From a virus (Duplodnaviria > Heunggongvirae > Uroviricota > Caudoviricetes): DNA of 8,184 nucleotides. The notes under the pieces were generated by a model. That model was not told the origin of the DNA, ran no database searches, and was given only the letters and a program-made list of their open reading frames with translations. Location: the IMG/VR virus record IMGVR_UViG_2617270945_000004. The stretch is one strand, 5' to 3'. Of the stretch, positions 1-8,184 are shown in pieces. Numbering within the stretch: the first letter of the stretch is position 1; the number at the start of each line of letters is the position of its first letter. Position numbers and translations under genes: made by a program.

Positions 1-462
1 GATTTTACGTCACTTAAAAAACTCAGGCCGCAGTCGGTAACCTCGCGCATACAGCCGGGCAGTGACGTCATCGTCTGCGCGGAAATGGACGAACAGTGGG
101 GCTATGTCGGGGCTAAATCGCGCCAGCGCTGGCTGTTTTACGCGTATGACAGGCTCCGGAAGACGGTTGTTGCGCACGTATTCGGTGAACGCACTATGGC
201 GACGCTGGGGCGTCTTATGAGCCTGCTGTCACCCTTTGACGTGGTGATATGGATGACGGATGGCTGGCCGCTGTATGAATCCCGCCTGAAGGGAAAGCTG
301 CACGTAATCAGCAAGCGATATACGCAGCGAATTGAGCGGCATAACCTGAATCTGAGGCAGCACCTGGCACGGCTGGGACGGAAGTCGCTGTCGTTCTCAA
401 AATCGGTGGAGCTGCATGACAAAGTCATCGGGCATTATCTGAACATAAAACACTATCAATAA
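1..462 (+). CDS. insB: IS1 transposase InsB reading frame, C-terminal part (partial, 5' end outside window)
   Basis: ORF track 85..462 gives the 125-aa tail from an internal Met; the same frame stays open back to position 1. The translation is identical to the minus-strand ORF 7705..8082 in the right-hand copy. Confidence 0.9.
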
Positions 463-477
463 GTTGGAGTCATTACC
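1..477 (+). mobile_element. IS1: IS1 insertion sequence, 3' portion (5' part lies outside the window); IRR-type terminus at 460-477 faces inward
   Basis: Sequence 460-477 (taagttggagtcattacc) is the reverse complement of the IS1 terminal repeat ggtaatgactccaactta. The InsB reading frame is open from position 1 and reads ...[39 protein letters not shown]..., ending HYLNIKHYQ at 462, just before the terminus. Identification is by recall of IS1, not a search. Confidence 0.93.
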
Positions 478-516
478 CACAGGCTAAATAGTTTGAATGA
501 TTAGCAGTTATGGTGA

Positions 517-723
517 TCAGTCAACCACCAGGGAATAATCCTTCATATTATTATCGTGCTTCACCAACGCTGCCTCAATTGCTCTGAATGCTTCCAGAGA
601 CACCTTATGTTCTATACATGCAATTACAACATCAGGGTAACTCATAGAAATGGTGCTATTAAGCATATTTTTTACACGAATCAGATCCACGGAGGGATCA
701 TCAGCAGATTGTTCTTTATTCAT
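517..723 (-). CDS. ybcW: Small prophage protein of unknown function, YbcW-like (68 aa)
   Basis: 68-aa [23 protein letters not shown]...; length and position (beyond bor and the ybcV-like gene, divergent from the latter) match my recollection of ybcW in DLP12. No functional motif recognised. Confidence 0.55.
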
Positions 724-1008
724 TTTGTCGCTCCATGCGCTTGCTCTTCATCTAGCGGTTAAAATATTACTTCAAATCTTTCTGTATGAAGATTTGAGCA
801 CGTTGGCCTTACATACATCTGTCGGTTGTATTTCCCTCCAGAATGACAGCAGGACCGCACTTTGTTACGCAACCAATACTATTAAGTGAAAACATTCCTA
901 ATATTTGACATAAATCATCAACAAAACACAAAGAGGTCAGACCAGATTGAAACGATAAAAACGATAATGCAAACTACGCGCCCTCGTATCACATGGAAGG
1001 TTTTACCA

Positions 1009-1419
1009 ATGGCTCAGGTTGCCATTTTTAAAGAAATATTCGATCAAGTGCGAAAAGATTTAAACTGTGAATTGTTTTATTCTGAACTAAAACGTCACAA
1101 CGTCTCACATTATATTTACTATCTAGCCACAGATAATATTCACATCGTGTTAGAAAACGATAACACCGTGTTAATAAAAGGACTTAAAAAGGTTGTAAAT
1201 GTTAAATTCTCAAGAAACACGCATCTTATAGAAACGTCCTATGATAGGTTGAAATCAAGAGAAATCACATTTCAGCAATACAGGGAAAATCTTGCTAAAG
1301 CAGGAGTTTTCCGATGGGTTACAAATATCCATGAACATAAAAGATATTACTATACCTTTGATAATTCATTACTATTTACTGAGAGCATTCAGAACACTAC
1401 ACAAATCTTTCCACGCTAA
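1009..1419 (+). CDS. ybcV: DUF1398-family prophage protein (YbcV/YdfO-like); start uncertain
   Basis: ORF track frame 886..1419. The in-frame ATG at 1009 ([13 protein letters not shown]...) gives 136 aa, the length I recall for YbcV/YdfO, with aagg about 10 nt upstream. The ATG at 886 would add 41 residues with no recognisable RBS. Confidence 0.5.
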
Positions 1420-1709
1420 ATCATAACGTCCGGTTTCTTCCGTGTCAGCACCGGGGCGTTGGCATAATGCAATACGTGTACGCGCTAAACCCTGTGTGCA
1501 TCGTTTTTAATTATTCCCGGACACTCCCGCAGAGAAGTTCCCCGTCAGGGCTGTGGACATAGTTAATCCGGGAATACAATGACGATTCATCGCACCTGAC
1601 ATACATTAATAAATATTAACAATATGAAATTTCAACTCATTGTTTAGGGTTTGTTTAATTTTCTACACATACGATTCTGCGAACTTCAAAAAGCATCGGG
1701 AATAACACC

Positions 1710-2003
1710 ATGAAAAAAATGCTACTCGCTACTGCGCTGGCCCTGCTTATTACAGGATGTGCTCAACAGACGTTTACTGTTCAAAACAAACCGGCAGCAG
1801 TAGCACCAAAGGAAACCATCACCCATCATTTCTTCGTTTCTGGAATTGGGCAGAAGAAAACTGTCGATGCAGCCAAAATTTGTGGCGGCGCAGAAAATGT
1901 TGTTAAAACAGAAACCCAGCAAACATTCGTAAATGGATTGCTCGGTTTTATTACTTTAGGCATTTATACTCCGCTGGAAGCGCGTGTGTATTGCTCACAA
2001 TAA
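1710..2003 (+). CDS. bor: Bor outer-membrane lipoprotein (serum-resistance protein family of lambdoid phages)
   Basis: 97 aa, MKKMLLATALALLITGCAQQ...: signal peptide with lipobox ITG-C. Sits convergent to Rz immediately past the lysis cassette, the canonical bor position. Confidence 0.85.
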   Translation: MKKMLLATALALLITGCAQQTFTVQNKPAAVAPKETITHHFFVSGIGQKKTVDAAKICGGAENVVKTETQQTFVNGLLGFITLGIYTPLEARVYCSQ

Positions 2004-2010
2004 TTGCATG

Positions 2011-2032
2011 AGTTGCCCATCGATATGGGCAA
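2011..2032. terminator. Hairpin between convergent bor and Rz (9-bp stem, 4-nt loop); possible bidirectional terminator, weak U-tracts
   Basis: gttgcccat-cgat-atgggcaac is a perfect 9-bp inverted repeat lying in the 31-bp gap between the bor stop (2003) and the Rz stop (2035). Flanking T-runs are poor on both strands. Confidence 0.3.
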
Positions 2033-2034
2033 CT

Positions 2035-2496
2035 CTATCTGCACTGCTCATTAATATACTTCTGGGTTCCTTCCAGTTGTTTTTGCATAGTGATCAGCCT
2101 CTCTCTGAGGGTGAAATAATCCCGTTCAGCGGTGTCTGCCAGTCGGGGGGAGGCTGCATTATCCACGCCGGAGGCGGTGGTGGCTTCACGCACTGACTGA
2201 CAGACTGCTTTGATGTGCAACCGACGACGACCAGCGGCAACATCATCACGCAGAGCATCATTTTCAGCTTTCGCATCAGCTAACTCCTTCGTGTATTTTG
2301 CATCGAGCGCAGCAACATCACGCTGACGCATCTGCATGTCAGTAATTGCCGCGTTCGCCAGCTTCAGTTCTCTGGCATTTTTGTCGCGCTGGGCTTTGTA
2401 GGTAATGGCGTTATCACGGTAATGATTAACAGCCCATGACAGGTAGACGATGATGCAGATAACCAGAGCGGAGATAATCGCGGTTACTCTGTTCAT
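2035..2496 (-). CDS. rzpD: Rz-type i-spanin (inner-membrane spanin subunit)
   Basis: ORF track 2035..2508; the lambda-Rz-like sequence begins at [36 protein letters not shown]... (153 aa), with an N-terminal TM helix and coiled-coil-like body. Its ATG (2496..2494) overlaps the endolysin stop TGA (2495..2493), the classic R/Rz ATGA overlap. Confidence 0.85.
2094..2276 (-). CDS. rzoD: Rz1-type o-spanin lipoprotein, embedded out of frame inside Rz
   Basis: 60 aa, [23 protein letters not shown]...[15 protein letters not shown]...: lipobox VVG-C and a proline-rich mature part. Lies entirely within the Rz gene in a different frame, as in lambda Rz/Rz1. Confidence 0.8.
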
Positions 2497-2990
2497 TGCT
2501 GACCCCACAAACAGATTTCACGCTCAATCTCACGACGAGTCATGAGACCTTTCCATTGCTTACCGCCAGCATATGTCCAGCGACGTAGCTGATCACATGC
2601 GCCTTTGATATCGCCCTGGTTTATTTTGCGAAGAAGCGTCGATGTTCTGAAATTGCCAGCACCCACGTTGTAAACGAATGAGTAAAGAGCGCCGCGCGTT
2701 GTTTCCGGTATATCGACTTTGATGTACGGGTTAATTTGTCTGGCGACAGTGGCAAGGTCTTTATTCAAGAGTGCTTTGCATTCTGCTTTGGTATACGTTT
2801 TACCGAGCATGATGTCTTTTCCGGTGTGTCCGTGACATACAGTCCATACGCCAACGATATCTTTGTATGGTACGTAGCTGACACCTTCCAGACCATCGTT
2901 ACCACTTGGGCCAGTAATTAACACTGATGCTATAGCAATTGCTCCGCCACCAATAGCAGCAGCAACGGCTTTTCGTAATGATGGAGGCAT
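2493..2990 (-). CDS. rrrD: Phage-21-type SAR endolysin (T4-lysozyme-like muramidase with N-terminal signal-anchor-release domain)
   Basis: 165 aa, [36 protein letters not shown]...: Gly/Ala-rich weakly hydrophobic N-terminal SAR segment. Residues E35, D44 and T50 fall where I recall the R21 catalytic triad. Its start overlaps the holin stop by 1 nt. Confidence 0.9.
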
Positions 2991-3205
2991 TATTCACCTC
3001 TCGCAGCCTTGCGCTTATCTTCTTTAATCTTGAAATAAAGGTTTGTCAGGTACGTCAGCAGGCCAAATACCAGGCTACCCAGCACACCTATTGCTGCCCA
3101 CTGTGAGGGCGTGACTTTATCGAGCAGCTGTAAAAACCAGTAACCGGCACTACCTGCTGAGGTGCCATAGGCGACACCCGTTGTTAACTTATCCATGGAT
3201 TTCAT
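2990..3205 (-). CDS. essD: Phage-21-type pinholin (class II holin) with dual-start motif MKSM
   Basis: ORF track 2990..3250. The S21-like sequence begins [26 protein letters not shown]... (71 aa) with GAGGTGGGG Shine-Dalgarno immediately upstream. Two TM segments and a charged C-terminus. Met1 and Met4 give the antiholin/holin pair typical of S21. Confidence 0.85.
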
Positions 3206-3330
3206 AACCCCACCTCGCAGACAAAGCGGGTGTAAATTGAGGGAATACAACGTATCGCAAAAAAGCAGAAACGTAACAGACTCGGAGTCAGTGAATAACT
3301 CAGGTATTGGGTTATCAGCTAATATCGAGA

Positions 3331-3366
3331 CTCAAAAAATGGAAAAACCCGCTCGACGGCGGGTTT
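3331..3366 (-). terminator. Intrinsic-terminator-like hairpin with U-tract on the minus (late-operon) strand, about 140 bp upstream of the pinholin start
   Basis: Plus strand 3345-3366 aaacccgc-tcgacg-gcgggttt (5 GC pairs plus 3 AT pairs). On the minus strand the hairpin is followed by tttttccatttttt (3331-3344). On the plus strand only ttt follows. Confidence 0.45.
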
Positions 3367-3710
3367 AAGCTGTGTGACGAAGTAACCACTCTTAACAGCA
3401 TAACCAATTTTTTACGTACGTAAACCACTAAATGATATTTGCGAGAATGCTACCGAGTATTGAAAACACCACTACAAATACATAAGCAAATCTCAACAAA
3501 TAACCAACAAATAATTTCCAGCGTTATTTTTAGCTGGTTTAAATTGAATCTTCAAATTATAGAGCGCTTATAAATAACAGCCATTAATATAAATTGGCTA
3601 ATAGATTTATTTTTATTCAGCCAAGAGCCATGAATAGGATTCGATAGAAAAAGTTCAGATAAAAATAGAGATCTACTTCACAAATCAAATGAGAAACCAA
3701 AACTTACATC

Positions 3711-3740
3711 TTGAAATAATCACATTGATTAGATGAATAT
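3711..3740 (+). promoter_or_regulatory. Candidate sigma70 promoter for the porin gene (TTGAAA-18-GAATAT) within an AT-rich upstream region
   Basis: ttgaaa at 3711-3716 and gaatat at 3735-3740, about 50 nt upstream of the porin ATG; the surrounding 3400-3790 is strongly AT-rich. Hexamer match only, no experimental basis. Confidence 0.25.
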
Positions 3741-3792
3741 TTATCGCGCAGTGACATCATTTTTTAATAATAGTTCAAAAAAAGGGCTCACG

Positions 3793-4875
3793 ATGAAAAA
3801 ATTAACAGTGGCAATTTCTGCTGTAGCTGCATCAGTACTGATGGCGATGTCTGCTCAGGCAGCTGAAATTTATAATAAAGACAGTAACAAGCTGGATCTG
3901 TACGGGAAAGTTAATGCTAAGCACTACTTCTCCTCTAATGATGCAGATGATGGTGATACTACTTATGCCCGTCTTGGCTTCAAAGGTGAAACCCAAATCA
4001 ACGATCAACTGACTGGTTTCGGTCAGTGGGAATATGAATTCAAAGGCAACCGCGCTGAATCTCAAGGTTCCTCCAAAGATAAAACCCGTCTTGCCTTCGC
4101 TGGCCTGAAATTCGGTGACTACGGCTCCATCGATTATGGCCGTAACTACGGTGTAGCATACGATATTGGTGCATGGACCGACGTTCTGCCAGAATTCGGT
4201 GGCGATACCTGGACCCAAACAGATGTATTCATGACTGGTCGCACCACAGGTGTTGCAACTTATCGTAACAATGACTTCTTTGGTCTGGTTGATGGTCTGA
4301 ACTTTGCTGCTCAGTATCAGGGTAAAAATGACCGCACTGACGTAACTGAAGCTAATGGTGATGGTTTCGGTTTCTCCACTACTTATGAGTATGAAGGATT
4401 CGGTGTAGGTGCAACCTATGCTAAATCTGACCGCACTAATAATCAGGTTATCTACGGTAACAACAGCCTGAATGCATCTGGTCAAAATGCTGAAGTATGG
4501 GCAGCTGGTCTGAAATATGATGCGAACAACATCTATCTGGCTACCACCTATTCTGAAACCCAGAACATGACTGTTTTTGGTAATAACCATATTGCCAACA
4601 AAGCACAAAACTTCGAAGTAGTTGCACAATATCAGTTCGACTTCGGTCTGCGTCCGTCCGTTGCTTACCTGCAATCTAAAGGAAAAGACTTGGGTGCGTG
4701 GGGTGATCAGGACCTGGTTGAATATATTGATGTAGGTGCAACCTATTACTTCAACAAAAATATGTCCACTTTTGTTGATTACAAAATCAACCTGATTGAT
4801 AAGAGCGATTTCACGAAAGCATCTGGCGTTGCTACCGATGATATCGTTGCTGTAGGTATGGTTTACCAGTTCTAA
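3793..4875 (+). CDS. nmpC: General-diffusion outer-membrane porin of the OmpC/OmpF/PhoE family, phage-borne NmpC/Lc type (360-aa precursor)
   Basis: ORF track 3733..4875. The likely true start is ATG 3793 ([23 protein letters not shown] signal peptide; aaaggg RBS). Mature N-terminus [17 protein letters not shown], the motif [18 protein letters not shown] and the C-terminal ...VAVGMVYQF (terminal Phe) are hallmarks of enterobacterial 16-strand porins. Confidence 0.9.
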
Positions 4876-4890
4876 TTTGATTACTAAAAG

Positions 4891-4925
4891 ATATGTTGCG
4901 GGAGGCTTTGCCTCCCCAACATATA
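4891..4925 (-). terminator. Imperfect 34-nt palindrome followed on the minus strand by cttttag; candidate tR'-like terminator of a short late-promoter transcript
   Basis: atatgttgcgggaggc-ttt-gcctccccaacatat (one mismatch in the stem). It lies about 140 nt downstream (minus sense) of the Q stop, where lambdoid phages place pR', qut and tR'. A second 7-bp hairpin aagtggc...gccactt sits at 4926-4947. Confidence 0.3.
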
Positions 4926-5011
4926 AGTGGCTCCCTCAAGCCACTTCCTTTAGGAGCACAACCTTGCTTCTAACTATATAAACCTTCTGTTATATATTAC
5001 CCTTTATTTTT

Positions 5012-5040
5012 GGGGGCGTCTCAACGCCCCATTTTTAATA
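5012..5040 (+). terminator. Rho-independent terminator-like hairpin with T-tract on the plus strand; probable porin terminator
   Basis: ggggcgt-ctca-acgcccc (7-bp GC-rich stem) followed by atttttaataattttt, the first clean hairpin-plus-U-tract downstream of the porin stop at 4875. On the minus strand it is followed by A-rich sequence. Confidence 0.4.
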
Positions 5041-5063
5041 ATTTTTAGTAAACAATTGGCATA

Positions 5064-5447
5064 TTAATTAGAGTTATTAACAACGATATCCATCTCTAAC
5101 CGGATATCTAATGCCATTAACATCCCTTCAATTATACCCTCAGCCTTCTGTAACCTTTTCCCGATATAACCATCAGAGCAGCAATGCTTACCTGCCAGTG
5201 ACATGAATGTCATACCGACTACATAATAATCTACTAATAAATCGTGCAAATCGCTGTTGTTCTTTTTCAGACGGGCCATGCACCCGCAAATGATCATCGC
5301 GTCATCGTCACAACATTGCGGGCGAGATTTTACTTTTGAAGTAATTAATCCCTTAAAACCGGCGGCAATGGACGACCAGGTCACATCTTCATGATTATTA
5401 GCCGCCCACGCTCCCCAACGCTCAAGAACCATCTGAATATCACGCAT
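5064..5447 (-). CDS. quuD: Late-gene antitermination protein Q (phage 21 / DLP12 QuuD type)
   Basis: ORF track 5064..5462. The start with a good RBS is ATG 5447 (ggag 7 nt upstream), giving 127 aa: [26 protein letters not shown]...[16 protein letters not shown]... Position is immediately upstream of the porin and lysis genes, downstream of the nin/rusA cluster. Confidence 0.8.
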
Positions 5448-5532
5448 CAACTTACTCCACAAAAATCAGACCAGAACGCCAATTACAAGCAAAAATCAAT
5501 AAAACAGTATTAGTTGATTGTTATCTCTGACT

Positions 5533-5673
5533 TCATACTCCTGCTCCTGTCAGGGTTTTGGCGTAATTCCTCAGTATTCGGTAATCGGTCAAAACAGAAC
5601 TGGGGAAACGATATAAGCGCAGGCGCATCCAGCGGTGGCGAAGAAGTTCTGCCATATTAAACTCAAACATCAT
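5533..5673 (-). CDS. ylcG: Small protein YlcG-like (46 aa), not in the ORF track
   Basis: Hand translation of the minus strand: [46 protein letters not shown], then stop. Its ATG overlaps the rusA stop (gaATGAtg). The 46-aa length and rusA-to-Q position match my recollection of DLP12 ylcG. Confidence 0.5.
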
Positions 5674-6032
5674 TCATTCCCCATTTCGGTGATGGTCAGT
5701 TCCAGCCTCCCACCTTTGGTAACAGGCATCTTCACAACGCGGTAATCAACGACCTGAGCATCATCCAGCCAGAAACCTGCTTTGGTGAGTGCGTCAAAAG
5801 CGGCTTTTTGCAGATTATCCAGGTCACGGCGACGGCGATCCGGCATGTGGCACTCAATACGGATTTTCACTGGCATAGCCAGGCCGATATCCAGCATTGC
5901 GTTTTTAATGATTCGGGTGACGTTATCGCGGTATGCCTGCCCTTCTGCGCTGATGTGTGTGCGCCCGCGATTATGGCGGTAATAGCGATTATTGCTCGGA
6001 GGCCAGGGTAATGTGATGCTGTAGGTATTCAC
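5670..6032 (-). CDS. rusA: RusA Holliday-junction resolvase (crossover junction endodeoxyribonuclease)
   Basis: 120 aa, [37 protein letters not shown]...[31 protein letters not shown]; matches the RusA family essentially along its full length. Its start overlaps the ybcO stop. Confidence 0.92.
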
Positions 6033-6319
6033 GCCTTAATAACCCCCTCTTTCAGCCAGATAACCTGTGTTCTCGCCATACCTTCCAGCGCGCATTCTTT
6101 TGCATATGCAGCATCGACAAAATGTGTGCGGCGGTCGATTTCGTCGTGGCAGGCAGAACATGCAATGGTGGCAATCAGGTCTGGCGGTTTCGTACCGGTG
6201 CCGCACAATCCAGTCAGCCGGATATGTGCCAGTACAGACGTTTCAGGGTTGCCATTACATACGCCAGGGATTCTTACCTGGCATTCCCGACCACGCGCTG
6301 CTTTTCTCAAATCAGCCAT
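6029..6319 (-). CDS. ybcO: YbcO-like prophage protein (DUF1364, Cys-rich putative nuclease), 96 aa
   Basis: ORF track 6029..6358. The start with a strong RBS is ATG 6319 (aggagga upstream): [62 protein letters not shown]... The start overlaps the ninE stop. Confidence 0.75.
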
Positions 6320-6482
6320 GACTCCTCCTTGCTGCCAGTCGCAACCATTTTTTATCAACCAGGCTGGCGGTATATCCGAGCAGTGTTGGTATTTCGGAAG
6401 GCTTCAGCTCCGGTTTACGCTTACGACGATTTGGTACTCTGTAGATGTGTCCGTTCATGACACGAATAAGCGGTGTAGCCAT
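6312..6482 (-). CDS. ninE: NinE-like small protein (56 aa), not in the ORF track
   Basis: Hand translation of the minus strand: [56 protein letters not shown], then stop. Its ATG (6482..6480) overlaps the ybcN stop by 1 nt and its stop overlaps the ybcO start. Confidence 0.65.
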   Translation of the reverse strand: MATPLIRVMNGHIYRVPNRRKRKPELKPSEIPTLLGYTASLVDKKWLRLAARRSHG

Positions 6483-6937
6483 TACGCCTCCTGTTTGTCG
6501 CGGAGCTGCTGGAACTCGCAGCTCTGCGGAATAGTCAGGTGGCGGCCAATATTCACCGCCCAGGCTTCAACCTTACACAGGAAGATATACATCTCTCCGG
6601 TATCAAGATCGGAGGTATGGCGTAACGACTGGATAGTAGTGATTTCGCCGGTTACGACATCAACCAGGTCCTTGGTTTCATAACCGAGGTATGTGTGTTT
6701 GAGAGCATCTTTTACCCATGCTGCGGTAGCGAACGATTTCCCCCTGCTGATGAGGTATTCACTGATTTCGCTGTACCACATGTGGCTGAGTGCATTCTGG
6801 GAAAGACTGCGTTTCTCACGCCACGGTTTAAGCACCATGCGAAAGCATTTTCCGTCCTCCAGATAAGGCTGGATCTGCTGGCCGATAGCGGTGAAGTTAC
6901 CGCGATGCAGTTTGATGCCATCTTGTGGTAGGTTCAC
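6482..6937 (-). CDS. ybcN: YbcN-like nin-region protein (151 aa), GTG start
   Basis: 151 aa, [55 protein letters not shown]... The initiation codon is GTG (plus-strand cac at 6935-6937), preceded by GGAGG with 6-nt spacing. Confidence 0.75.
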
Positions 6938-7058
6938 GCTTCACCTCCGCAGAGGTCAGACGCTGGATGCAAAAAATCGCAGGTGCATTTCTGCATCTGT
7001 GAAGGGAGAAGAGAGTTTGGATTGTATGTGCGCATAAACGTCCCCGTTTAGCGCAGAA

Positions 7059-7096
7059 GTCACCGGAGTTGTTCAAGCTCCGATGACTTTATTATT
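7059..7096 (+). terminator. Terminator-like hairpin with T-tract on the plus strand, between the lipoprotein gene and ybcN
   Basis: gtcaccggag-ttgttcaag-ctccgatgac (9 of 10 bp pair) followed by tttattatt. No plus-strand gene is evident upstream of it, so its function is unclear. Confidence 0.25.
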
Positions 7097-7127
7097 ACGA
7101 ATTGATTTTACAAAATCAAAAGGTATG

Positions 7128-7580
7128 TTAGTGACGCGGGTCTGTTATTATGCGAGAAGGGTTTCCGTATAAAACAAGGACCTTACTTCCTTGAGTAAAT
7201 AACGGATCTTTGCCTTGAACAATGGTCATTAAATTCCCATTCTCAGTTTCGACAACATATTCCATGCCTGTTTGTTTTGTTGCTGAAGATTCGATTGCTG
7301 CCCCGGCAATACCACCAATGACTGCACCACCAACGGCACCAACGATATTAGAACGAACTCCCCCACCAAGCGCAGAACCAGCGGTTGCCCCCACGGCAGC
7401 CCCAGCAGTCCCGCCTAACGCGGAAGTCCCACTGATATCAACCCCCCTAGCACTAATAACTGTACCAGCGATAGTTCGATTAACCATGCCCACAGAGCCA
7501 ACAGAATAACTATTTGGCGATATATTTTGTGCGCATCCAACCAACACTAAGAGTGGAGCAATTACGAATAATCGCTTCAT
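7128..7580 (-). CDS. SlyB/Pcp-family outer-membrane lipoprotein with glycine-zipper domain (150-aa precursor)
   Basis: MKRLFVIAPLLVLVGCAQ...: signal peptide plus lipobox LVG-C. Central Gly/Ala-rich GxxxG-repeat segment (GGTAGAAVGATAGSALGGGVRSNIVGAVGGAVIGGIAGAAI). The C-terminal part (MEYVVETENGNLMTIVQGKDPLFTQGSKVLVLYGNPSRI) resembles the SlyB C-terminal beta region as I recall it. Confidence 0.7.
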   Translation of the reverse strand: MKRLFVIAPLLVLVGCAQNISPNSYSVGSVGMVNRTIAGTVISARGVDISGTSALGGTAGAAVGATAGSALGGGVRSNIVGAVGGAVIGGIAGAAIESSATKQTGMEYVVETENGNLMTIVQGKDPLFTQGSKVLVLYGNPSRIITDPRH

Positions 7581-7689
7581 TTAGCTACCCTAACAGGAAA
7601 CATTGGACGAGAAAGATCAACACTTTCTAATGCTTGCAAGAACTGCGTTATGTTGTTTTGCACCGCGCGATTAACAGATTCGCGTGCTC

Positions 7690-8184
7690 GGTAATGACTC
7701 CAACTTATTGATAGTGTTTTATGTTCAGATAATGCCCGATGACTTTGTCATGCAGCTCCACCGATTTTGAGAACGACAGCGACTTCCGTCCCAGCCGTGC
7801 CAGGTGCTGCCTCAGATTCAGGTTATGCCGCTCAATTCGCTGCGTATATCGCTTGCTGATTACGTGCAGCTTTCCCTTCAGGCGGGATTCATACAGCGGC
7901 CAGCCATCCGTCATCCATATCACCACGTCAAAGGGTGACAGCAGGCTCATAAGACGCCCCAGCGTCGCCATAGTGCGTTCACCGAATACGTGCGCAACAA
8001 CCGTCTTCCGGAGCCTGTCATACGCGTAAAACAGCCAGCGCTGGCGCGATTTAGCCCCGACATAGCCCCACTGTTCGTCCATTTCCGCGCAGACGATGAC
8101 GTCACTGCCCGGCTGTATGCGCGAGGTTACCGACTGCGGCCTGAGTTTTTTAAGTGACGTAAAATCGTGTTGAGGCCAACGCCC
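7690..8184 (-). mobile_element. IS1: IS1 insertion sequence, 3' portion (remainder outside window), inverted relative to the left copy; IRR-type terminus at 7690-7707 faces inward
   Basis: 7690 onward reads ggtaatgactccaacttattgatagtgttttatgttcagataatgcccgatgac..., the IS1 end as I recall it, continuing to the window edge. It encodes an InsB identical to the left copy on the minus strand. Confidence 0.93.
7705..8184 (-). CDS. insB: IS1 transposase InsB reading frame, C-terminal part (partial, 5' end outside window)
   Basis: ORF track 7705..8082 (125 aa from an internal Met, identical to 85..462). The frame stays open to 8184, reading ...[18 protein letters not shown]..., consistent with the InsB N-terminal region. 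Confidence 0.9.

Follow-up and report, generated by a model that had tools for sequence, protein, structure and literature searches.

The Q and lysis genes of an IS1-bounded prophage remnant as a probable DLP12/qsr'-type module

Why should a prophage remnant without structural genes keep a seemingly complete set of lysis genes? This question is raised by IMG/VR virus record IMGVR_UViG_2617270945_000004 (Caudoviricetes), an 8,184-nucleotide (nt) stretch of DNA that is referred to below as the window. Between two copies of the insertion sequence IS1, its positions 2035-5447 hold genes for a Q antiterminator and for the lysis proteins S, R, Rz and Rz1, and the original prediction took their retention as a sign of either recent decay or selection for a use to the host. 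Here, we propose that the region is very probably, as far as its sequence tells, the standard late-regulation and lysis module of DLP12/qsr' lambdoid prophages, in which intactness is usual and needs no strain-specific explanation. The module as such is already known and is textbook material (qsr'/DLP12, the phage 21 pinholin and signal-anchor-release (SAR) endolysin, and Q933-type antitermination).

Genes and control sites of the module

The reading-frame map and the Pfam matches of the window describe a lambdoid prophage segment whose late genes are read from the minus strand. The module contains the following features, given in the order of late transcription (aa, amino acids):

5064-5447, minus strand: Q (QuuD) antiterminator, 127 aa (PF06530, E-value 4e-53)
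5013-5030, plus strand: hairpin resembling a terminator for the porin gene, within the convergent spacer between Q and porin, GGGGCGTCTCAACGCCCC followed by ATTTTT
3793-4875, plus strand: complete porin 'moron' of the nmpC/lc type, 360 aa (PF00267, E-value 3e-153)
3397-3424, minus strand: candidate late promoter PR', with -35 TTTACG (3424-3419), -10 TATGCT (3402-3397) and a 16-nt spacer
3367-3396, minus strand: putative initial transcribed region with a qut-like segment (GTTAAGAGTGGTTACTTCGTCAC...), placed by homology to phage 933W
3335-3366, minus strand: tR'-like intrinsic terminator, an 8-bp GC-rich stem (AAACCCGC/GCGGGTTT) followed by a T run
2990-3205, minus strand: S, class II pinholin/antiholin, 71 aa (PF04971, E-value 3.5e-35)
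2493-2990, minus strand: R, SAR endolysin, a GH24 lysozyme of 165 aa (PF00959)
2035-2496, minus strand: Rz, inner-membrane spanin subunit, 153 aa from ATG (PF03245, E-value 2.8e-54)
2094-2276, minus strand: Rz1, outer-membrane lipoprotein spanin subunit of 60 aa, embedded in Rz (PF06085, E-value 2.9e-20)

All five genes that had been described as intact (Q, pinholin, SAR endolysin, Rz and the embedded Rz1) have open frames at these positions and match their Pfam families. The overlaps called canonical are also present: S and R share 1 nt (TAATG), R and Rz share 4 nt (ATGA), and Rz1 lies in the +1 frame of Rz at an offset of 220 nt, the arrangement of a two-component spanin. S begins with MKSMDK, the dual-start motif annotated for S21, and its two starts would give S71 (Met1) and S68 (Met4, at 3196); with 71 residues, the PF04971 match and this dual start, it fits the class II holins, which have two membrane helices. 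The overlaps and the dual-start motif are common to this module and the phage 21 cassette.

At the protein level, S is identical to EssD of Escherichia coli K-12 and to S of phage PhiR34_1 (71/71), and it shares 61 of 71 residues with S21, the changes being conservative. R is identical at 163 of its 165 positions to R21 (PDB 3HDE), K-12 RrrD (4ZPU) and the PhiR34_1 protein; the identity to R21 includes residues 1-26, and R has the characters of a SAR endolysin. It carries E35, D44 and T50, reportedly the catalytic triad in the R21 structure. The identity of Rz is 152/153 to PhiR34_1, 149/153 to Rz21 and 147/153 to K-12 DLP12, where the gene starts with GTG rather than ATG, and its cysteines lie at positions 14, 99 and 152. 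Rz1 agrees fully with Rz1 of phage 21 (60/60) and at 59 of 60 positions with that of K-12; its cysteines are at 9, 20 and 29, with the lipobox Cys20 after LVVVG. Alignment to the S21, R21 and Rz homologues, the check from which inactivating mutations might have emerged, thus returned intact frames with E35/D44/T50 of R and the cysteines of Rz and Rz1 in place.

Two codons of the lysis genes deserve mention. Rz codon 18 (2443-2445), in the membrane helix, encodes tyrosine here, cysteine in PhiR34_1 and phage 21, and serine in K-12. R codon 40 (2871-2873) encodes valine here and isoleucine in K-12 RrrD, PhiR34_1 and phage 21; many other genomes encode exactly the same V40-bearing R protein. Both substitutions are probably neutral.

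The label '21-type', which had been given to the whole module, suits S, R, Rz and Rz1 but not Q. Over all 127 residues, Q agrees with K-12 QuuD and with the Q protein of PhiR34_1, and it shows 77-81% identity over residues 1-126 to Q of the Shiga toxin (Stx) phages 933W and H-19B. Its identity to Q21 is 22-31% overall (38 of 169 aligned columns in one alignment), and its match to Q21 in the PDB is weak (E-value 7.6e-7 over 80 residues). With the PF06530 match, the high identity and a homologous pR'-qut-terminator segment in the window, Q is classed by sequence as a Q933/H-19B-type antiterminator, a PF06530 subtype. A Q21-type assignment was considered and rejected in view of the low identity to Q21, the 933W-type promoter region and the lack of DNA homology to phage 21 upstream of S. 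A Q21-type assignment would also call for a Q21-type binding element (ATTGAGCA/AATGAGCA) in pR', whereas the promoter region here is of the 933W type. Phage 21 has its own Q21, pR' and Q-binding element, with two tRNA genes upstream and no porin, and its DNA homology to the window starts exactly at the S start codon.

Promoter, qut-bearing segment and terminator are clearly homologous to those of the Stx phages 933W and H-19B. PR' aligns with the annotated putative pR' of 933W (positions 667-694 of our 933W sequence, L009), the following segment with the one bearing its annotated putative qut (L009 708-715), and the terminator with its annotated terminator (L009 727-749). From the -35 element through the terminator, the sequence is identical to that of PhiR34_1 and invariant in 11 sequences except for one stem change in two of them, while the surrounding spacer varies and includes a 16-nt indel. 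The S start follows the terminator after about 130 nt; the terminator hairpin forms in the RNA fold with a minimum free energy of -15.1 kcal/mol, which for the 63-nt segment is no better than in shuffled controls (z = -1.55). A late promoter directly downstream of Q was also considered and rejected: the sequence there has no homology to the 933W promoter, and its only strong hairpin is the porin terminator (5013-5030), which has no T tract on the minus strand.

A side observation concerns the S leader, where a 16-nt sequence (CTGCTTTTTTGCGATA; 3253-3268, minus strand) lies between tR' and the S ribosome-binding site. It is present here, in PhiR34_1 and in most sampled genomes; K-12 DLP12 and two sampled genomes (L012 and L014) have lost it by deletion.

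The arrangement of these parts differs from that of 933W, in which pR' overlaps the 3' end of Q and tRNA genes and stx follow as downstream cargo. Here, about 1.65 kb with the antisense porin separates codon ~120 of Q from PR', and the lysis genes follow directly. Rfam and tRNA scans of the window were empty, so that no tRNA genes lie between Q and S, unlike in phage 21 and 933W. Q is also shorter at its C-terminus (127 aa against 144 aa in H-19B Q) and diverges past 'RLEMD'; the porin insertion also replaced the C-terminal tail that is present in 933W Q. The original prediction had named the right genes and overlooked both the antisense porin (3793-4875) and the late promoter region (~3424-3335).

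The porin lies antisense to the late operon between Q and PR', and it is intact here whereas IS5 interrupts it in K-12. No other part of the module varies nearly as much: its nucleotide identity is 87.6-98.9%, with a 15-nt length variant, as against at least 93% for Q, S, R and Rz. As the product is a surface protein, diversifying pressure could be the reason. For lambdoid phages, porin genes of the nmpC/lc type were described by Blasband et al. (1986, as cited in PMC11677980).

On this map, QuuD would act in trans on PR' with its qut-like site (~3424-3367), displaced by about 1.65 kb from Q by the porin moron. RNA polymerase modified by Q would then read through tR' (3366-3335) into S-R-Rz/Rz1. 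The S pinholin would depolarise the inner membrane, and depolarisation would release and activate the membrane-tethered SAR endolysin R, after which the Rz/Rz1 spanin would disrupt the outer membrane. The module would presumably cause lysis when expressed in this strain, for which the identity or near-identity of its proteins to those in phage records is indirect evidence.

As to expression, it is probable that the cassette is silent or only basally expressed in the remnant, because an early PR/N operon to drive Q is missing from the window and tR' insulates S. The description of the module as potentially lethal was therefore overstated, since S-R-Rz stand behind an intrinsic terminator. In K-12, the rusA gene of DLP12, which lies upstream of Q and is transcribed as part of one unit with it, stays silent unless an insertion sequence provides a promoter.

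Relatives of the module and its occurrence

The closest described counterpart is DLP12 (qsr') of E. coli K-12. The two share the genes quuD-nmpC-essD-rrrD-rzpD/rzoD-borD in order and orientation, with 95-97% nucleotide identity over window positions 478-7121, and blastn matches are collinear along ybcN-ninE-ybcO-rusA-ylcG-quuD-(nmpC antisense)-essD-rrrD-rzpD/rzoD-(bor antisense)-ybcV-ybcW. They differ beyond position 7121, where a glycine-zipper lipoprotein gene stands here and ybcL/ybcM in K-12. They may differ also in location: DLP12 lies at argU, whereas the closest relatives of the present block lie at bioA/ybhB-ybhC. By its sequence, the element is best described as DLP12-like, with an integration site that would fall outside the window.

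Near-identical modules are found in phage records. The segment Q-porin-S-R-Rz-bor is matched over at least 80% of its length, at 94-98.6% identity, in 34 records, including PhiR34_1, ev243, mEp332 and phage 434B. In these phages the module is preceded by replication genes and followed by terminase, portal and head genes, whereas here it is bounded by IS1.

Phage 434B (L007, OL657227, 2208-5799) offers an observation of its own. In this record, the annotated nonhomology to phage 434 spans Q, an IS5-interrupted porin and the S start, with a crossover in ylcG. Because K-12 DLP12 has the same IS5-interrupted nmpC, the region looks like a substitution acquired from DLP12, that is, a modern sequenced recombinant of the qsr' type. 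We assume that it corresponds to the classical type of recombinant that was called qsr'. If so, the Q and late promoter of DLP12 can serve a phage.

Among complete E. coli genomes, the module is common. At least 80% of the 3.4-kb region 2035-5447 is present in 2,196 of the 5,426 genomes (about 40%). We sampled eight of these at even steps down the ranking (93-99% identity), and in all eight Q, S, R, Rz, Rz1 and the porin are intact. Ten further loci were found by an exact-protein look-up of R, so that the intactness of R is built into this set; S, R, Rz and Rz1 are intact in all ten. What had seemed noteworthy in one remnant, the intactness of its module, is thus the normal state, as seen for S, R, Rz and Rz1 in all 18 sampled copies and in the 34 phage records.

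The nearest match to the block itself is in the chromosome of E. coli FDAARGOS_1248, which differs from window positions 478-7690 at 2 of 7,213 positions, both outside 2035-5447; within 2035-5447 the two are 100% identical. IS1 is present at neither junction in that genome. The closest relatives (L001 7117-30118, L002 and L004) are inserted between bioA/ybhB and ybhC and not at argU. We take this bioA/ybhB-ybhC site to be the lambda attachment site (att-lambda). They carry a lambda-type integrase and are themselves defective, with a truncated terminase gene and part of a tail-fibre gene, and they lack genes for immunity and replication. Their half from ybcN to the tail fibre is 95-97% identical to DLP12 and holds similar fragments of terminase and tail-fibre genes.

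Five of the ten att-lambda loci from the look-up (L019, L020, L021, L022 and L026) have a Q without its 5' 164 nt. In these, a different deletion joins the ral/cIII/kil region to Q nucleotide 165 (Q fragment at ~3710-3925 of each locus); three of them (L020, L022 and L026) visibly adjoin ybhC and ybhJ. PR'/tR', S, R, Rz, Rz1, the porin and bor are intact in all five. Selection acting somewhere within the porin-lysis-bor segment would account for this pattern, and so would simple chance.

A comparison of the ratio of nonsynonymous to synonymous substitution rates (dN/dS) across strains carrying the remnant had been suggested as a means of telling selection from decay. Across 11 sequences, the corresponding mean pairwise ratio of nonsynonymous to synonymous diversity (piN/piS) was 0.27 for Q, 0.014 for S, 0.07 for R and 0.30 for Rz, the last being constrained because Rz1 overlaps it. 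The ratios are low in S and R, but they do not discriminate: the neighbouring rusA, ybcO, ninE, ybcN and porin genes have similarly low ratios in pairwise comparisons, and therefore the lysis genes do not stand out from the remaining block by their conservation. We set dN/dS aside as a discriminator of host-level and phage-level selection for this reason, and also in view of the bias that the exact-protein look-up brings to the comparison for R.

Several points weigh against the assignment to a standard, functional DLP12/qsr' module. No convincing promoter for Q was found inside the block, where promoter-like sites upstream of Q are no more frequent than in shuffled sequence, and neither PR' nor a clear promoter of Q came up in generic sigma-70 scans; PR' itself matches the consensus at 4+4 of 12 positions and falls below the threshold of such a scan. 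The predicted positions of PR' and qut depend on homology to 933W sites that are annotated as 'putative'. By Rz Y18 and R V40, the present allele differs from those of K-12, PhiR34_1 and phage 21, and the experimental work cited below concerns K-12 DLP12. Furthermore, low dN/dS does not separate selection on free phages from selection on the host.

It might be argued that the module is dead in spite of its open frames, with Rz C18Y, R I40V or the weak -10 element of PR' abolishing function. The two residues do differ from all three of the compared systems, K-12 DLP12, PhiR34_1 and phage 21. They are, however, conservative changes outside the catalytic and disulfide residues, an R protein of exactly this sequence is found in 5,280 blocks of the protein collection, and PR' through tR' is the same as in PhiR34_1. 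We consider such a hidden loss of function very improbable, and the assignment to the DLP12/qsr' type is retained.

The IS1-bounded block

The remaining features of the window are the genes on either side of the module and the two IS1 copies:

1-477, plus strand: IS1 copy, cut by the window edge (PF03400; 99.6% identical to IS1A), whose right inverted repeat (IRR) end meets the block at 477/478
517-723: ybcW, from the reading-frame map
1009-1419: ybcV, from the reading-frame map
1710-2003, plus strand: bor, serum-resistance lipoprotein (PF06291; 94/97 identical to K-12 BorD)
5533-5673, minus strand: ylcG
5670-6032, minus strand: rusA (Pfam RusA)
6029-6319, minus strand: ybcO (Pfam YbcO)
6312-6482, minus strand: ninE (Pfam NinE)
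6482-6937, minus strand: ybcN, with a weak, sub-threshold NinB match
7128-7580, minus strand: 150-aa glycine-zipper lipoprotein upstream of ybcN (weak PF05433 match, E-value 3e-4)
about 7577-7689: 3' stump of a hypothetical gene, truncated by the right IS1
7690-8184, minus strand: inverted IS1 copy, cut by the window edge, whose IRR end meets the block and truncates the hypothetical gene

The bor gene is the usual neighbour downstream of Rz, and the nin-region genes upstream of Q (ylcG, rusA, ybcO, ninE and ybcN; 5533-6937, minus strand) follow the order of K-12 DLP12. Reading frames and Pfam matches gave no virion or replication gene between the IS1 copies: besides the module there are only ybcW, ybcV, bor, the porin, the nin-region genes and the lipoprotein, which bears out the earlier description of the block as lacking such genes. 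The IS1 boundaries also stand as described, since positions 1-477 and 7690-8166 form an inverted repeat with arms that are 100% complementary over 477 nt. In both copies, which are 99.6% identical to IS1A, the IRR end and hence the reading direction of the transposase point into the block. The right junction falls within the gene that is WP_000720581.1 in the relatives.

This pair of IS1 copies with inverted arms is the only feature specific to the window. Neither junction is present contiguously in any of the 5,426 complete E. coli genomes or on any plasmid, and an exact search of species-representative genomes with the left junction gave no match. Two inverted IS1 copies that are identical over 477 nt and have the same end (IRR) inward could suggest a composite transposon, in which the 7.2-kb block would mobilise the lysis genes together with bor and the porin. 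If true, this would provide a particle-independent route by which prophage 'morons' and a Q-controlled lysis cassette spread between replicons. However, a plasmid with at least 80% of the block was not found, the complete E. coli genomes lack either junction, the resident att-lambda remnant has a collinear counterpart of the block, and two independent IS1 insertions or IS1-mediated deletions are simpler. A composite transposon is thus most improbable, the least likely of the explanations considered here; the outer IS1 ends and the target duplications fall outside the window, in which both copies are seen in part.

A further plasmid record was noted separately. HM037272.1, attributed to Bacillus thuringiensis CT-43, has 2.3 kb that are 95.8% identical to the E. 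coli lysis-porin region, most likely as a contamination or cloning artefact in that record.

Retention of the module

The puzzle of lysis genes kept in a defective prophage was set out for K-12 DLP12 by Pasqua (2021; PMC7918800). According to this source, the K-12 cassette is transcribed and is controlled by a Q-type antiterminator (citing Rueggeberg 2013), by RpoE (citing Rueggeberg 2015) and by Hha (Garcia-Contreras 2008, PMC2408971). Cassette deletion and a vesiculation assay, both of which had been proposed for the present locus, are reported there for K-12, with Toba 2011 also cited. A strict sigma-E-like pattern (GAACTT-N15-17-TCNNA) had no match in the window, so the published RpoE control could not be mapped. 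The work by Rueggeberg from 2013 reportedly deals, to go by its title, with Q control of the cassette.

One explanation for retention is that the host has domesticated the module: low-level expression of S-R-Rz/Rz1, modulated by Q and sigma-E, would aid peptidoglycan turnover, the control of vesiculation and biofilm formation, and the intact cassette would be maintained by host selection. In K-12, deletion of the DLP12 operon leads to about 4-fold more vesicles and its expression responds to osmolarity, pH and temperature (PMC7918800), and lysis phenotypes linked to Hha involve rzpD (PMC2408971). The low piN/piS of S and R points in the same direction, as do the five of ten att-lambda remnants that have lost the start of Q and keep PR'/tR', S, R, Rz, Rz1, the porin and bor. 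On the other hand, the neighbours for which no host role has been proposed have equally low ratios, and the Q-truncated loci came from the exact look-up of R, in which an intact R is built in. Near-identical modules occur in phage records and 434B suggests exchange between DLP12 and phages; therefore, phage-level selection and gene flow could explain the conservation. Shigella, moreover, has lost the locus without harm (PMC7918800, citing Leuzzi 2017). Domestication is thus possible and on the whole doubtful.

Another explanation is recent decay and nothing more, in which the prophage was trimmed lately, here by IS1, and too little time has passed for mutations in the lysis genes. The 2 differences in 7,213 positions from relatives without IS1 at either junction agree with this, and since the junctions occur in no complete E. 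coli genome, the IS1 events appear to be young and lineage-specific. However, the same bioA/ybhB-ybhC site is occupied in many strains, with several deletion derivatives, and the remnant is thus neither young nor private. At argU, K-12 has a second remnant, which has diverged by about 4-5% and still has intact Q, S, R, Rz and Rz1 genes. Recent decay by itself is a tentative explanation, slightly less probable to us than domestication. Retention by recent or neutral persistence, accompanied by gene flow from phages, is tentative at about the same level or somewhat above it.

The original prediction held that recent decay and selection could not be told apart from sequence, and we agree: sequence cannot settle between domestication and persistence, because low dN/dS is common to the neighbouring genes.

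For the remnant itself, the outcome is a corrected map, in which Q is of the 933W type, an antisense porin splits Q from its putative promoter and a terminator would shield S. For E. coli more broadly, an intact module of this kind is the population norm.

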